Virus record (IMG/VR): IMGVR_UViG_3300020181_000005
Coordinates: 1 to 40,241 of that record
Direction: 5' to 3' (one strand)
DNA length: 40,241 nucleotides
Origin: a virus
Shown here: positions 6,094 to 8,706 of the stretch, in pieces
Numbering within the stretch: position 1 is the stretch's first letter
How the letters are laid out: each line of letters begins with the position of its first letter
Program-made: the position numbers and the translations under genes
Notes under the pieces: generated by a model
Seen by the model: the letters and a program-made list of their open reading frames with translations, nothing else
What the model was told of the DNA's origin: nothing
Database searches by the model: none

Positions 6094-6561
6094 ATGGCCG
6101 GAGAGACACCGCTCACGATCGTCGGCAATCTGACCGCCGACCCGGAGCTCCGCTACACGCAGAACGGGCTCGCCGTCGCGAACTTCACGATCGCCGCGAC
6201 CGAACGAACCTTCGACCGTCAGGCGAACGACTGGAAGGACGGCGACCCGCTGTTCCTTCGCTGCTCGATCTGGCGCGACTACGCCGAGCACGTCGCGGGC
6301 TCGCTCACCAAGGGTACCCGCGTGATCGCCACGGGCAGTCTGAAGCAGCGCAGCTACGAGACGAAGGAGGGCGAGAAGCGCACGGTGTTCGAGCTCGACG
6401 TGCTCGAGATCGGTCCGGCGCTGCGGTTCGCGACGGCGCAAGTCGTGCGCGCCACACAGGGCGGGGCGCCGGTGCAGCAGCAGCAGCAGCAGAGGCCGCA
6501 GCAGGACGACGTCTGGAACACGCCCGGCGCGGCGAGCTACGACGACGAGACGCCGTTCTGA
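6094..6561 (+). CDS. ssb: Single-stranded DNA-binding protein
   Basis: The OB-fold N-terminus reads [34 protein letters not shown]...[10 protein letters not shown] Gln-rich linker and the acidic tail DDETPF follow. Confidence 0.95.
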
Positions 6562-6620
6562 TCGAGTAGACTGGACGGCGATCCGGGCGGGTTTCATGGT
6601 GGCCCGCAGTGATCATTCTG

Positions 6621-6654
6621 AGCGGGGCGACGTATGGGAGTGCGTCGCCCCGCT
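6621..6654 (+). terminator. Intrinsic terminator after ssb
   Basis: An 11-12 bp GC stem (GCGGGGCGACG / CGTCGCCCCGC) is followed by TTCATTATT. Confidence 0.7.
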
Positions 6655-6661
6655 TCATTAT

Positions 6662-6677
6662 TGGTACGATGCAAACA
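6662..6677 (+). promoter_or_regulatory. Candidate extended -10 promoter giving a leaderless ParB-like transcript
   Basis: TGgTACGAT (TGn + TANNNT) at 6662-6670 is followed by 6 nt and then the ATG at 6677. No SD sequence is present. Confidence 0.4.
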
Positions 6678-7207
6678 TGAGCATGCAGGTTGTAAGCGTC
6701 CCCATCGCAGATCTCAATGCGTTCGAGGGAAACGCTCGCCGCGGCAACGTCGACGCGATCGCAGAGTCGCTCTTCACGAACGGGCAATACAAGCCGATCG
6801 TGGTGAATCGCGGCACGCACACCGGCAAGCCGAACGAAGTGCTCGCCGGGAATCACACTCTCGAGGCTGCAGCGTCGCTCGGCTGGGATGCGATCGAGTG
6901 CGTGTTCGTCGACGTCGACCGGGCGAGCGCTCTGAAGATCGTGCTGGCTGACAACCGGACGAACGATCTCGCGGCGTACGACGACCGCGAGCTGGTCGCG
7001 CTGTTGCAGGAGCTGCCGGATCTCGACGGCACCGCGTTCGATCAGGACGCTCTCGACCGACTGCTCGCGGGACTCGAGGCGCCCAACTTCGAGCCCGACG
7101 ACGAGGAAGACGTGCGACTCGACCGGAAGAGCGTGACGACGTGCCCTGAGTGTGGGCACGTGTTCACGCCCGTCACGCGCACAGCGACTGAGGACGATCT
7201 GCTGTGA
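6677..7207 (+). CDS. ParB-like nuclease-domain (ParB/Srx fold) protein with a C-terminal zinc ribbon
   Basis: ...NAFEGNARRGNVDAIAESL...YKPIVVN...VLAGNHTLEAAASLGWDAIECVFVDVD... is a ParB N-terminal domain. The C-terminus carries CPECGHVF. The upstream in-frame extension from 6596 would run through the terminator hairpin. Confidence 0.75.
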   Translation: MSMQVVSVPIADLNAFEGNARRGNVDAIAESLFTNGQYKPIVVNRGTHTGKPNEVLAGNHTLEAAASLGWDAIECVFVDVDRASALKIVLADNRTNDLAAYDDRELVALLQELPDLDGTAFDQDALDRLLAGLEAPNFEPDDEEDVRLDRKSVTTCPECGHVFTPVTRTATEDDLL

Positions 7208-7386
7208 CTCTCGCGCGTACTCGCGTGAAGAAACTCTCGCGACAGGTCGGCGTGCTCATGCACGAGCTCAGCGAGGACGATCCGGAGGCGTACGAGTTGC
7301 TGAAGGAGTATCACCACGCGCTGCGTGGTGCTGTGATCGAGCTGCGCGTCGAATTGCGCGAGCTCCGAGCGAAGGAGCTCACGTGA
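7204..7386 (+). CDS. hypothetical small coiled-coil protein
   Basis: 60 aa, coupled by GTGA overlaps on both sides. Confidence 0.55.
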   Translation: MTLARTRVKKLSRQVGVLMHELSEDDPEAYELLKEYHHALRGAVIELRVELRELRAKELT

Positions 7387-8015
7387 CACTGAAGATCGCG
7401 CCCGCCAGTCACGAGGCGGCGCTGTACGCGGTGCAGCACTGGCACTACAGCCGCAAGCTGCCCAGCGGCAAGCTGTTCCGCAGGGGCGTCTGGGAGCACG
7501 ACAAGTTCATCGGTGTCGTGATCTTCTCGCGCGGCGCGACGAACACGATCGGCAGCCCGTTCGGGCTGACACAGACGCAGTGCGTCGAGCTCACTCGTGT
7601 CGCCCTGAATGCGCACGATGCGCCGGTGTCGCAGATCGTCGCTGCAGCGATCCGAGATCTCAAGGCAGGCAATCCCGGGCTGAGACTGATCGTCAGCTAC
7701 GCCGACCCCATGCAGGGGCACCACGGCGGCATCTACCAAGCCGGGAACTGGATCTATGTCGGCCAGGGCAAGGCGGCGCCCGAGTTCGTCGTGAACGGCG
7801 TGCAGATGCACATGCGCAGCATTCACGCGAAGGGCTGGAAGCAGACGCTCGAGTGGCTGCGCGCGAACGTCGACCCGAAGGCGCGTCGCGTCGAGATCAC
7901 TCCGAAGCACAAATACGTGATGCCCCTCGACAAGCCCATGAGGCGGTCTGTCGCGAAGCTCGCGGTGGAGTATCCTCGAAGTGCGACGTCGGAAACGGCG
8001 ACGGACAGCGTCTAG
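7383..8015 (+). CDS. Mom-like GNAT-fold protein (possible DNA adenine-modifying enzyme); tentative
   Basis: The pattern HWHYSRKLP...FGVWE..KFIGVVIFSRGA...ELTRVAL...LIVSYADPMQGHHGGIYQAGNWIYVGQG matches my memory of the phage Mu Mom family (HYS...SYAD..GH.G.IY.A.NW). This was not verified by any search. The longer ORF from 7152 overlaps two upstream genes. Confidence 0.5.
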   Translation: MTLKIAPASHEAALYAVQHWHYSRKLPSGKLFRRGVWEHDKFIGVVIFSRGATNTIGSPFGLTQTQCVELTRVALNAHDAPVSQIVAAAIRDLKAGNPGLRLIVSYADPMQGHHGGIYQAGNWIYVGQGKAAPEFVVNGVQMHMRSIHAKGWKQTLEWLRANVDPKARRVEITPKHKYVMPLDKPMRRSVAKLAVEYPRSATSETATDSV

Positions 8016-8033
8016 CGTCGCACTGTCCAACAT

Positions 8034-8105
8034 GCGGGTGAAGCATCTGAGGCGATGCGCCGGACGACCAATCCGGAGGGGCTGGTTCGAACCCAGTCGC
8101 CCGCT
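8034..8105 (+). tRNA. tRNA-like element (72 nt, full cloverleaf, non-canonical anticodon loop CGACCAA)
   Basis: Folded by hand. Acceptor stem GCGGGTG/CGCCCGC is 7 bp with one G-U pair. D stem is GCAT/ATGC, with GG in the loop. Anticodon stem is CCGGA/TCCGG. T arm is GCTGG-TTCGAAC-CCAGT. Deviations from a standard tRNA: A8, C14, G33, and no encoded CCA. Confidence 0.4.
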
Positions 8106-8116
8106 CGGGGGCGGCA

Positions 8117-8150
8117 GCGCCGCGAGCCTTTTCGGGAGGGCTCGCGGCGC
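8117..8150. terminator. Bidirectional terminator hairpin between convergent transcription units
   Basis: The stem GCGCCGCGAGCC(TT)/(AG)GGCTCGCGGCGC is about 14 bp and is followed on the + strand by TTCGTCGTTT. It lies between the tRNA-like element and the 3' end of the reverse gene. Confidence 0.7.
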
Positions 8151-8159
8151 TTCGTCGTT

Positions 8160-8402
8160 TCAGTCGATCGTCACGCCCCGAAGAATCGCGGCGATCTCGC
8201 GCTCTGCGTCCTCGCGGGTGGGCACGTTCTCGATCGCGGTCGGTGCGCCGCTGTCGATGATCACGACGAGGCGCTGCAGCTGCGTCGAGTAGGTCGCGGT
8301 GACGGTGTGCGTCATGTAGTCGATGCGCAGCAGGTGGGAGACGGTGGGGCGCATGTTGCGGGGAGCGGCGGTCATCTTCACGGTGATCTTCGTTTGCGTC
8401 AT
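8160..8402 (-). CDS. hypothetical protein; the only reverse-strand gene (possible HicB-like or regulator; speculative)
   Basis: 80 aa (MTQTKITVKM...VPTREDAEREIAAILRGVTID) with strongly GC3-biased codons, unlike the overlapping + strand ORFs. A good promoter sits directly upstream, and there is no SD sequence (leaderless). Confidence 0.7.
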   Translation of the reverse strand: MTQTKITVKMTAAPRNMRPTVSHLLRIDYMTHTVTATYSTQLQRLVVIIDSGAPTAIENVPTREDAEREIAAILRGVTID

Positions 8403-8437
8403 GGATACATAGTAAGCAATCCAGTCGGCTATCTCAA
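8402..8437 (-). promoter_or_regulatory. Sigma70-type promoter for the reverse gene (leaderless)
   Basis: On the - strand: TTGAGA (8437-8432), a 17-bp spacer, TACTAT (8414-8409), 6 nt, then ATG (8402). Confidence 0.6.
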
Positions 8438-8462
8438 ACCGTCGCCCTCTGGCGTGTCCAGC

Positions 8463-8500
8463 TTGCGCGGTGTCGTCGGCCACCTGTAACTTCGTTCTCA
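8463..8500 (+). promoter_or_regulatory. Promoter-family copy A (leaderless)
   Basis: TTGCGC (8463) - 18 bp - TAACTT (8487) - CGTTCTC - ATG (8500). The segment is homologous to copy B over about 45 bp. Confidence 0.55.
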
Positions 8501-8706
8501 TGAGCGAAGCGAAGAACATCCGCAAGATCCTGACCGGCCTCGAGCAGCAGGGAGCACGCGTGAAGCCGACCCGCGACGGCTGGCAGATCCTGTGCCCATC
8601 GGGAGACATAGTGACGATGCACGGCACTGAGTCAGATCACCGGGCGATGCGCAACACGCGCAGTCGAATCAAGCGAGCCGGTCTGCAGTGGCCGCTCGAC
8701 AAGTGA
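8500..8706 (+). CDS. HicA-like small protein (tentative)
   Basis: 68 aa. IRKILTGLEQQGARVKPTRDGWQILCPSGDIVTMHGTESDHRAMRNTRSRIKRAGLQW resembles the HicA/YcfA toxin fold pattern. GC3 is lower than in the neighbours. The ATG lies exactly 7 nt after TAACTT. Confidence 0.4.
   Translation: MSEAKNIRKILTGLEQQGARVKPTRDGWQILCPSGDIVTMHGTESDHRAMRNTRSRIKRAGLQWPLDK

Follow-up and report, generated by a model that had tools for sequence, protein, structure and literature searches.

The way in which the Mom protein of phage Mu modifies DNA was unsolved for 40 years, until Gly-tRNA-Gly was recently shown to be the donor. Mu Mom moves glycine from Gly-tRNA-Gly onto N6 of adenine in double-stranded DNA (PMC13219725; bioRxiv 10.1101/2023.03.24.534169), and the glycyl adduct then rearranges on the base to N6-carbamoylmethyl-adenine (PMC13219725). 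Three of three Escherichia coli tRNA-Gly isoacceptors work with Mu Mom while Gly-charged tRNA-Ala does not, and recognition of the acceptor end was therefore proposed by the authors (PMC13219725). ParB-like domains are found fused or adjacent to phage DNA methyltransferases, and 'ParB-Tls' loci are found beside terminase genes (PMC4738411). We examined a viral DNA of 40,241 nt (IMG/VR record IMGVR_UViG_3300020181_000005, positions 1 to 40,241; the whole of this stretch is referred to below as the window) in which a mom-like gene is preceded by a gene for a ParB-like protein and followed by a tRNA-Gly gene. Three other systems offer points of comparison with this arrangement. In Staphylococcus aureus, non-proteinogenic tRNA-Gly isoacceptors reportedly feed the FemXAB transferases; DpdA and DpdB are said to act in 7-deazaguanine modification of DNA; and the tRNA-like structures (TLS) at the 3' ends of the RNA genomes of plant viruses are involved in replication and translation. 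A first-pass annotation of the window had proposed a ParB-like and Mom-like DNA-modification (anti-restriction) module ending in a tRNA-like element. This central call was upheld: the unit is very probably a Mom-type DNA-modification module, and its tRNA is likely, judging from what is conserved in the sequences, to serve as the glycyl donor of the Mom enzyme. The genes of the unit are the following.

6677-7207, plus strand: ORF (open reading frame) of the ParB-like protein, 176 aa
7204-7386, plus strand: small ORF, 60 aa
7383-8015, plus strand: Mom-like ORF, 210 aa
8034-8106, plus strand: tRNA-Gly gene, 18 nt 3' of the mom stop codon

The Mom-like protein matched the Pfam family PF25680 (Mom) over residues 3-198 of 210, with an E value of 5.1e-49 and a score of 167.1 bits against a cut-off of 27.1, and PHROG 1384 ('Mom-like DNA modification protein') at 2.1e-59. 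A match by sequence to the crystal chain of Mu Mom, 8bv8, was detected at 1.3e-6. The AlphaFold2 model of the protein had a predicted local distance difference test (pLDDT) score of 90.0, and its top Foldseek match was 8bv8_A (E = 9e-11; template modeling [TM] score of 0.71 over 208 columns), which was better by six orders in E value than the next matches, a series of generic GNATs with E values of 1.5e-4 or above. The Mom-specific insertion was present in the region aligned to Mu residues 175-209, and six of the seven proposed active-site residues of Mom were kept, with H58, Y59, R111, S124, D149 and Y159 of Mu corresponding to H21, Y22, R72, S82, D108 and Y118 of the window protein; the roles of the Mu residues are those given in the mechanism paper (PMC13219725). 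Identity between the two proteins was ~24%, and in many phage records the gene is labelled just 'acetyltransferase.' These results indicated that the product of 7383-8015 is a Mom-family GNAT, and the likeness to Mu Mom that had been suggested from short motifs was thus borne out both by profile and by structure comparison. By analogy with Mu, the protein is predicted to be a Gly-tRNA-Gly-dependent DNA adenine-N6 aminoacyltransferase.

The tRNA-like element that had been noted 18 nt downstream of mom proved to be a gene for tRNA-Gly. ARAGORN called 8034-8106 as tRNA-Gly(ACC), the sole tRNA in the 40-kb window, and a search of a 251-nt stretch with Rfam RF00005 gave 36.3 bits against a gathering score of 29. 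A whole-window Rfam search at the gathering threshold produced no matches at all, which is an artefact of the speed filter on an atypical tRNA and not an absence. The family covariance model R1 (see below) scored the gene at 80.8 bits. Direct reading identified G1:C72, C2:G71, G3:C70, U73, C35 and C36, the positions that are reported to form the identity set of bacterial glycyl-tRNA synthetase (GlyRS). The RNA of the window is a tRNA-Gly. It departs from the decoding norm in its anticodon loop, C-G33-A34-C35-C36-A-A, which has G33 for U33 and an ACC anticodon (8067-8069) in place of the bacterial GCC, UCC or CCC, and in having A8 (8041) and C14 in place of the U8-A14 pair; the GG of the D loop is kept, the discriminator U73 is at 8105, and CCA is not encoded. 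The closest relative (L140; relatives are cited by locus number) has U33 together with A34. As the G33-A34-C-C-A loop recurs in many derived elements in the form CGACCAG, the loop of the window is a recurrent variant and not a sequencing oddity. An origin of the tRNA as a remnant of a phage attachment site (attP) was considered and rejected: the tRNA is full length, integrase genes numbered zero among the ten window proteins scanned, the partner of the tRNA is always mom, and phage Appa is lytic, with exactly one tRNA (PMC7302621 Table 1).

The distribution of the element was examined in 80 viral contigs with relatives of the window Mom at 48-67% identity, ten metagenomic loci from six closer relatives at 77-90% identity, three annotated phage loci and 60 bacterial-genome loci. 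In the first 93 sources (92 loci and the window), ARAGORN detected 24 tRNAs, of which 23 were tRNA-Gly and 22 of these 23 were at or within ~60 nt of the 3' end of mom. A cloverleaf alignment of 18 relatives had 98.4% of its cells paired and 13 pairs with compensatory changes. Of 500 shuffles, none came up to the alignment in covariation score, in percentage of cells paired or in the number of double-sided cells or of extra pair types, and 4 reached its count of pairs with a double-sided change. Covariance model R1 was built from this 18-member alignment and a second model, R2, was built for derived forms, with calls being made at an E value of <0.001; all tallies rest on covariance-model calls alone. 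A relaxed scan for the acceptor stem only (6 of 7 pairs) matched 23% of control windows and was discarded. The Rfam tRNA model found nothing in 12 loci at an E value of ≤0.1, and ARAGORN under-counted the elements: in the first 93 sources it made 23 Gly calls, and the covariance models made 85.

When counting was limited to the 148 loci with a complete Mom C terminus and at least 90 nt downstream, R1 or R2 detected the element at the 3' end of mom in 125. Of the 29 clusters formed by the Mom proteins at 70% identity, at least 25 had the element, and it was on the same strand as mom except in Appavirus, where it is just downstream and inverted. Only four matches were located elsewhere than at the 3' end of mom: one tRNA each in L050 and L063, at a greater distance downstream of the gene, and, in bacterial loci, an annotated tRNA-Met adjoining the element (L174) and a 29-bit upstream match (L142). 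The mom ORF contains the start of the element in 73 of 82 viral loci, as far as 157 nt ahead of the stop codon, and the element is therefore read also as the C-terminal tail of the protein. In cultured Marthavirus phages, tRNA-Gly-like elements scoring 68-69 bits with R1 overlap the stop codon of the Mom-like gene (BarretLemon [NC_031252], L002:3601-3672; L004-L006:4601-4672); ARAGORN made no call in the Marthavirus Mom loci that were scanned with it, and the BarretLemon record has no tRNA annotated at this place. A second, divergent Mom paralogue is found directly 5' of mom in L024:3360-3992 and L027:3360-3992, giving tandem mom genes, and a ParB-like match was detected in both within 1.5 kb upstream of the downstream mom copy.

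Constraint on individual positions was tabulated for 40 distinct cloverleaf-type elements (alignment A4), as follows.

G1C2G3: 40/40
C70G71C72: 40/40
U73: 40/40
C74: 40/40
C36: 40/40
C35: 39/40
A58: 40/40
A8 (U8 in canonical tRNAs): 40/40
U33: 25/40
Position 34: U in 33, A in 4, C in 2, G in 1
Position 55: U in 24, G in 16
GG in the D loop: 23/40

Almost all tRNAs have U8. A pyrimidine instead of A was also observed at position 14 of the Mom-linked cloverleaf tRNA-Gly. The positions that are frozen are those read by GlyRS and, by published inference, by Mom, and the positions that drift are those needed by the ribosome. This combination of a frozen identity and drifting decoding features is the signature that one would expect from a glycyl carrier whose main task is not decoding.

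The derived form of the element occupies the same position at mom. It measures 64-70 nt and has its GCU-CCA end encoded; its parts are an acceptor stem of 7 bp, a D region of reduced size, an arm resembling the anticodon arm and a T-like arm from which an A bulges. R2 scores for derived elements were 65-93 bits. The D arm and the T-loop consensus are lost altogether in the derived forms; in an alignment of 19 members of this D-arm-less subgroup, GCU-CCA was always encoded and 12 of 19 pairs exhibited compensatory change. Such mini-tRNA-like elements are situated inside the 3' end of mom at L019:1185-1254, L142:3100-3169 and ~40 other loci, are conserved from Proteobacteria to prophage-like loci of Saccharibacteria and are recognized by neither Rfam nor ARAGORN. 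There was a suggestion, with the chances evenly balanced, of a single class of mimics that runs from near-canonical tRNA-Gly through the G33/A34/A8 form of the window to D-arm-less, CCA-encoding mini-tRNAs in the 3' end of mom.

Association of the element with the ParB-like gene was examined in 132 loci with room on both sides of mom, with the ParB-like gene being found by a hidden Markov model of its family.

ParB-like gene present: element present in 110 loci, absent in 1
ParB-like gene absent: element present in 1 locus, absent in 20

Fisher's exact test gave a P value of 2e-21, which is not corrected for phylogeny. In nearly every locus with the element, a match to the ParB-like model was located just upstream of mom. 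The double-negative loci belonged mostly to one Pseudonocardiales prophage lineage, together with a few others. A solo Mom of the window clade, with neither partner, was observed in genomes of Amycolatopsis, Lentzea, Actinosynnema, Umezawaea, Actinokineospora and Crossiella (L143, L148-L150, L152, L153, L155, L158, L160, L162, L164, L165 and L177), and this actinomycete lineage looks as if the ParB-like gene and the element had both been lost from it or had never been there. Both were also missing from the distant Mom clades, namely, the Mu-like clade, Corynebacterium phage Darwin, Bacillus BC-6, Enterococcus Alamo and a Salmonella phage; with Mu Mom as the seed, a scan recovered nothing but near-identical Mu-like prophages and added little diversity. 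As the ParB-like gene and the element co-occur and the distant clades have neither, the unit of inheritance is the ParB-like gene, mom and the tRNA-Gly-like gene together.

This three-part linkage was conserved in more than 100 phages and prophages and across differing genomic settings. The cassette is beside SSB or replication genes in the window, in Appa and in L084. In L087 (1001-3637), L088 and L089, the ParB-like gene and mom are immediately 5' of the TerS, TerL and portal genes, the tRNA is wholly inside the mom ORF and the mom stop codon overlaps the TerS start. Prophage-like loci with the cassette were detected in Alpha-, Beta- and Gammaproteobacteria, Actinomycetota, Planctomycetota, Acidobacteriota, Saccharibacteria and others.

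The ParB-like protein matched PHROG 723 ('ParB-like') at 2.9e-50. Scores with Pfam PF02195 (ParB_N; 21.8 bits) and TIGR00180 (26.6 bits) were under the respective cut-offs of 26.3 and 58, and PF02195 is listed for a 203-aa gene call in the precomputed Pfam matches of the collection. An AlphaFold2 model (pLDDT of 88.4) had as its best Foldseek matches the ParB-CTP structures 7bnr and 6sdk (~1e-7; TM score of 0.63), within a set of CTP- or CDP-bound ParB, Noc, KorB and PadC structures with E values of 1e-7 to 1e-4 and TM scores of 0.55-0.63; sulfiredoxin was a weaker match. The model thus indicates a ParB/Srx N-domain fold for the product of 6677-7207, as had been predicted, with CTP-bound ParB N domains as the nearest structures. 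The zinc ribbon that had been assigned to the same protein was not sustained. The C terminus is an acidic tail with a single CPxCG knuckle, which is conserved across the family; the knuckle of the window protein is CPECGH (C147-x2-C150 plus His152) with no four-ligand site, the E values for Pfam Zn-ribbon families were 0.13-0.22, and the region was modelled at low confidence (pLDDT of 52-72).

Where CTPase ParBs carry GERR, the window protein has G58-N59-H60-T61. The first three of these residues were invariant and T61 was nearly invariant in 35 homologues, while more distant Mom-linked ParB-like proteins had a GH[GAL]R motif and shared a C-terminal FEPG..QGKLD..CPHCG tail. A role as a partition protein was rejected, since no ParA gene was detected among ten other window ORFs scanned against PHROGs, or likewise in relatives, and the neighbours are SSB upstream and mom downstream. 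With GERR replaced and no ParA nearby, the protein does not qualify as a partition protein of the ordinary kind. By analogy with DpdB and with the ParB-methyltransferase pairings, it would most likely be a nucleoside triphosphate (NTP)-gated DNA-binding helper that guides or stimulates the action of Mom on phage DNA, and it may act directly with the RNA; because GERR is missing, an NTP-gated clamp mechanism is just an analogy.

The boundaries of the unit are marked by further features, each of which the first-pass annotation had placed at or within a few bases of the positions found here.

6620-6655, plus strand: hairpin 3' of ssb, 16-bp stem followed by a T-rich tail
6662-6670, plus strand: extended -10-like element TGGTACGAT, with the hexamer TACGAT at 6665-6670
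8110-8156 (core, 8116-8151), both strands: terminal hairpin between the tRNA and a convergent minus-strand ORF

The ssb gene is at 6094-6561, and its megablast matches are annotated SSB genes. The hairpin that follows it, which had been given as 6621-6654, had a folding energy of -32.1 kcal/mol (z = -5.6), and none of 200 shuffles folded equally well; it is likely an intrinsic terminator bounding the unit on its upstream side, and equivalent hairpins are found 5' of the ParB-like gene in L086, L001 and L003. Six nucleotides (GCAAAC) separate TGGTACGAT from the ATG at 6677, as previously described, and direct reading of the sequence revealed no Shine-Dalgarno sequence upstream of this ATG. The arrangement TTGGTACGATGCrAACATG is kept at every base in L086, which has a ParB-like protein of 70% identity, and Appavirus has an analogue, TAGACT, 7 nt before the ATG. 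These two observations make a leaderless transcript plausible, with TGGTACGAT as its candidate promoter, although a generic two-hexamer promoter scan did not call the site. The terminal hairpin, which had been given as a bidirectional terminator at 8117-8150, was stable on both strands (plus strand, -39.6 kcal/mol, z = -5.8; minus strand, -30.1 kcal/mol, z = -4.8). It was not called by a terminator pattern scan, and it is likely to be a bidirectional terminator that closes the unit.

The three ORFs were confirmed at their coordinates, with a GTGA start/stop overlap at both junctions. The G+C content by codon position supported the frames of the ParB-like ORF (0.70/0.41/0.82) and the mom ORF (0.62/0.45/0.87) and argued against an upstream extension of the mom frame (7152-7382; 0.73/0.75/0.42). 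The start of the ParB-like ORF at 6677 is favoured over that at 6596, the choice of a public gene caller, because homologues are 165-185 aa long; the extension from 6596 had a weak coding signal, with a G+C content of 0.63 at third codon positions.

The 60-aa ORF had a coding-like G+C distribution by codon position (0.74/0.34/0.79). Its proposed membership in the module did not stand. No family match was obtained in Pfam, PHROGs or NCBIfam, no tblastn match was obtained in the loci of relatives that were searched, and the ORF corresponds to a ~180-nt insertion in the alignment that is missing from every relative examined. In the closest relatives the ParB-like gene adjoins mom with no ORF in between, and in the nearest of them, L140, whose Mom is ~90% identical, the ParB-like gene overlaps mom directly. 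The ORF is a lineage-specific insertion unique to the window and outside the conserved module; the coiled-coil nature of its product is a prediction. Candidate homologues were rejected: a 77-aa Marthavirus ORF (L002:2771-3004) is in the same position but aligned weakly, and 67-aa ORFs in L048 and L074 were unrelated. The 67-aa ORFs are present at the junction of the ParB-like gene and mom in L048:705-908, L074:3802-4005 and L077:3004-3207, and the junction appears to be a hotspot for the insertion of small genes. In L013, the ParB-like gene and mom are separated by a 1.3-kb gap within which an ALIL pseudoknot, an Rfam cis-regulatory family, was detected at 768-875 with 46.8 bits, just under the gathering score of 50. 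The ALIL pseudoknot family is associated with insertion sequences, and one may have landed inside the L013 cassette.

The window as a whole has a G+C content of 66.8% and looks like a complete ~40-kb genome of a lytic-type actinophage, with Microbacterium Appavirus and Arthrobacter Marthavirus phages as distant kin. Its products include RecE-like, RecT-like, DnaB, SSB, DUF932 and RuvC-like proteins. The ORF at 8160-8627 on the minus strand, which converges on the terminal hairpin, is among the very few genes that seem to point leftward, the genome being otherwise transcribed rightward; it had no PHROG match, and its true start is uncertain. The AT skew changes sign at 8100-8500, as would fit a convergent gene on the minus strand with its end at 8160, and supports ~8160-8450 as the extent of this ORF. 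An ORF with an HNH-like motif (CVRCG...HH...CHGWVH) is located at 2469-2843 on the plus strand, between the gene at 2042-2476 and the replication-initiator/loader region; in L084, an HNH gene is found instead between ssb and the ParB-like gene.

The series of events that we propose for the unit begins with a leaderless transcript that would start just past the ssb terminator, span the ParB-like gene, the 60-aa ORF, mom and the tRNA, and end at the 8110-8156 hairpin. The tRNA would be cut out of this transcript and matured by the host CCA-adding enzyme, and host GlyRS would glycylate it, as its identity elements are all kept. The Mom-family GNAT would put the glycyl group on N6 of adenines in double-stranded phage DNA, and rearrangement of the adduct to N6-carbamoylmethyl-adenine would block restriction enzymes. 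The phage tRNA would act in this scheme as a dedicated glycyl carrier, like the non-proteinogenic tRNA-Gly that feeds the Staphylococcus Fem transferases; as G33, A34 and A8 make the tRNA of the window a poor decoder, it is best read as such a carrier. The ParB-like protein would be an obligate partner of the tRNA-carrying form of Mom, acting as an NTP-gated DNA-binding factor. Since Mu Mom uses Gly-tRNA-Gly and the element is a tRNA-Gly, the operon would end in the gene for the co-substrate of its enzyme. The link between tRNA and enzyme had been called pure speculation in the first-pass annotation, which reasoned from carbamoyl-adenine chemistry of the kind found at tRNA A37. That t6A-type reasoning falls, the relevant fact being the transfer of glycine by Mom from Gly-tRNA-Gly, and the functional link is much stronger than had been supposed because the element is a tRNA-Gly. 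Overall, the unit is probably a post-replicative anti-restriction hypermodification cassette of the Mu Mom type that carries its own co-substrate gene.

Several points weigh against this interpretation. The modified base, the charging of the tRNA and its use by a Mom of the window clade are all matters that we infer. Mu Mom works on host tRNA-Gly alone, and hence a phage copy is not chemically required. R151, which is essential in Mu, is Met110 in the window protein (ADPMQGHHG compared to ADERCGRAG of Mu); this residue is also not conserved in the Mom homologues of Corynebacterium, Bacillus, Enterococcus and Salmonella phages, and it is therefore not a family-wide feature. The ParB-like protein lacks the GERR CTP-binding motif, and the association between the ParB-like gene and the element is uncorrected for phylogeny, with the 20 double-negative loci coming from few lineages. 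In Appavirus, the tRNA is on the opposite strand and behind a terminator, so that co-transcription is not universal. The majority of cloverleaf copies (25 of 40) retain U33 together with a UCC anticodon, which reads GGA, a rare codon at the 67% G+C of this genome, and a translational role is possible for these copies. The last of these points is also the foundation of an explanation, unlikely in our judgment, in which the tRNA-Gly is an ordinary translational phage tRNA for rare Gly codons in a high-G+C host and its adjacency to mom is inherited synteny. GGA and GGT are the rarest Gly codons of the window by a rough count (GGC, 632; GGG, 243; GGT, 127; GGA, 111), about one-third of Microbacterium phages carry 1-4 tRNAs (PMC7302621), and the Appavirus copy is canonical in the anticodon loop, encodes CCA and is on the opposite strand. 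A decoding function is, however, difficult to reconcile with the G33 and A34 of the window copy, the lack of U33 in 15 of 40 cloverleaf copies, A8 for U8 in all 40, the many copies without G18G19 or U55 and a large subgroup without any D arm. Nor would mere synteny be expected to produce a set of ARAGORN tRNAs near mom genes that are Gly in 23 of 24 cases, or an element that stays at the 3' end of mom across replication and terminase neighbourhoods and across phyla, while being missing from the sampled distant Mom clades, none of which has a ParB-like gene beside mom, and from nearly all window-clade loci without that gene.

Somewhat less likely than a translational role is a mainly cis-acting function of the element on the mom mRNA, in 3' processing, stability or dosage control, for example through cleavage by RNase P that limits a toxic enzyme. 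Expression of Mu Mom is tightly controlled and over-expressed Mom is toxic, which speaks for such a function, as does the start of the element inside the mom ORF in 73 of 82 viral loci, where excision would truncate the mRNA; in the window, the element is placed 18 nt past the mom stop codon and ahead of the terminator. A pure processing signal, however, would need no full GlyRS identity set, invariant C35/C36, U73 or, in the derived forms, encoded CCA, and the Appavirus copy, being on the other strand, is unable to act in cis on the mom mRNA. A cis role and a role as donor may coexist. It is very improbable that the Mom of the window clade uses another donor, such as acyl-CoA, or another acceptor, such as RNA or protein, with the ParB-like protein being an unrelated nuclease or a partition-type protein. 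The ~24% identity to Mu Mom, the unconserved R151 and the annotation as 'acetyltransferase' in many phage records would allow for a different chemistry, as the substrates of GNATs are unpredictable from the fold (PMC13219725). Against it are a score far above the Pfam threshold for Mom, the six orders in E value by which Mu Mom, with its Mom-specific insertion, is the best structural match, and the retention of six of seven proposed active-site residues; an exclusive tie to a tRNA-Gly-like gene is what would be predicted for a glycyl-tRNA-dependent enzyme, and with no ParA nearby the locus is not a partition locus. We therefore favour donation of glycine by the phage tRNA to DNA through Mom as the explanation of the unit.

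Mom itself and its dependence on tRNA-Gly were already known. What is new, as far as the sequences tell, is the gain by a Mom system of a ParB-like partner and of its own private tRNA-Gly, which is in part translation-incompetent. A literature search, with Iyer et al. 2009/2013 (possibly on Mom neighbourhoods) lying outside its scope, returned no paper that describes the pairing of ParB and Mom or the linkage of mom and tRNA-Gly, and the main text of PMC13219725 (supplements being outside the scope) contained no match for ParB or gene-context terms. The statement that a ParB-like and Mom-like pairing is undescribed holds for papers; the pairing itself is the rule in this Mom clade, and it is present in GenBank records of Appavirus and Marthavirus, where the ParB-like and Mom-like or 'acetyltransferase' genes, and in Appavirus the tRNA-Gly too, are annotated singly. 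The largest sampled Mom clade almost always carries a tRNA-Gly-like gene fused to the 3' end of mom, which provides independent genomic corroboration of a tRNA-dependent Mom mechanism well beyond Mu. Whether widespread phage tRNA-Gly mimics serve DNA hypermodification, and not translation, as dedicated carriers of the glycyl group, in one cassette with a Mom-type enzyme and a ParB-like partner tied to the RNA, is in our estimation a question that could fall either way. If true, it would give viral tRNA genes a new role, besides codon supplementation or evasion of tRNA-targeting defences, in a DNA-modification system of three components (protein, enzyme and RNA co-substrate). The ParB-like genes that are common in phages gain a testable role as partners. 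In cultured, available phages of the Arthrobacter Marthavirus group, tRNA-like elements are now flagged that ARAGORN misses and that have no tRNA feature in the BarretLemon record, and the question of private phage aminoacyl-tRNA pools for DNA chemistry is directly testable with existing isolates.

Comparison with the systems introduced above places the cassette as follows. The derived elements resemble the plant-virus TLS in being aminoacylatable-looking tRNA mimics with CCA termini at the 3' end of a coding sequence; unlike these, they belong to DNA phages and are tied to one enzyme gene, and the window copy is a full cloverleaf tRNA. The ParB-methyltransferase and ParB-Tls loci, alongside which PHROG 498 is cited, likewise pair a ParB-like protein with a base modifier, and L087-L089 are likewise 5' of terminase genes. 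The cassette of the window differs from them in that its modifier is a Mom-type GNAT, an RNA gene is included and its neighbourhood is a replication module and not a terminase. DpdA and DpdB are likewise a DNA-modifying enzyme related to a tRNA-handling enzyme and an adjacent, obligatory ParB-like NTPase; they differ in that DpdA is of the transglycosylase family, the chemistry is another and there is no tRNA gene in the system, and the ParB-like protein of the window, unlike DpdB, is without the canonical GxxR phosphate-binding motif. The tRNA-Gly isoacceptors of the S. aureus Fem system are, like what is proposed here, charged by the normal GlyRS, depart from translational features and feed a GNAT-fold transferase for a purpose outside the ribosome. 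The Fem acceptor is a peptidoglycan precursor, however, and the genes are chromosomal and not fused to the transferase gene; a further difference is that the tRNA of the window keeps the GG of the D loop. Phage Mu Mom (8bv8; PMC13219725) belongs to the same Pfam family and shares the GNAT fold with the Mom-specific insertion, the six key residues and, as predicted, the chemistry, in which glycine is placed on adenine N6 and converted to N6-carbamoylmethyl-adenine with protection from restriction. The mom gene of Mu is solitary at the end of the genome, with neither a ParB-like gene nor a tRNA beside it, and the published work used E. coli tRNA-Gly; the mom gene of the window, in contrast, comes third in a cassette that includes a ParB-like partner and a tRNA-Gly of its own.

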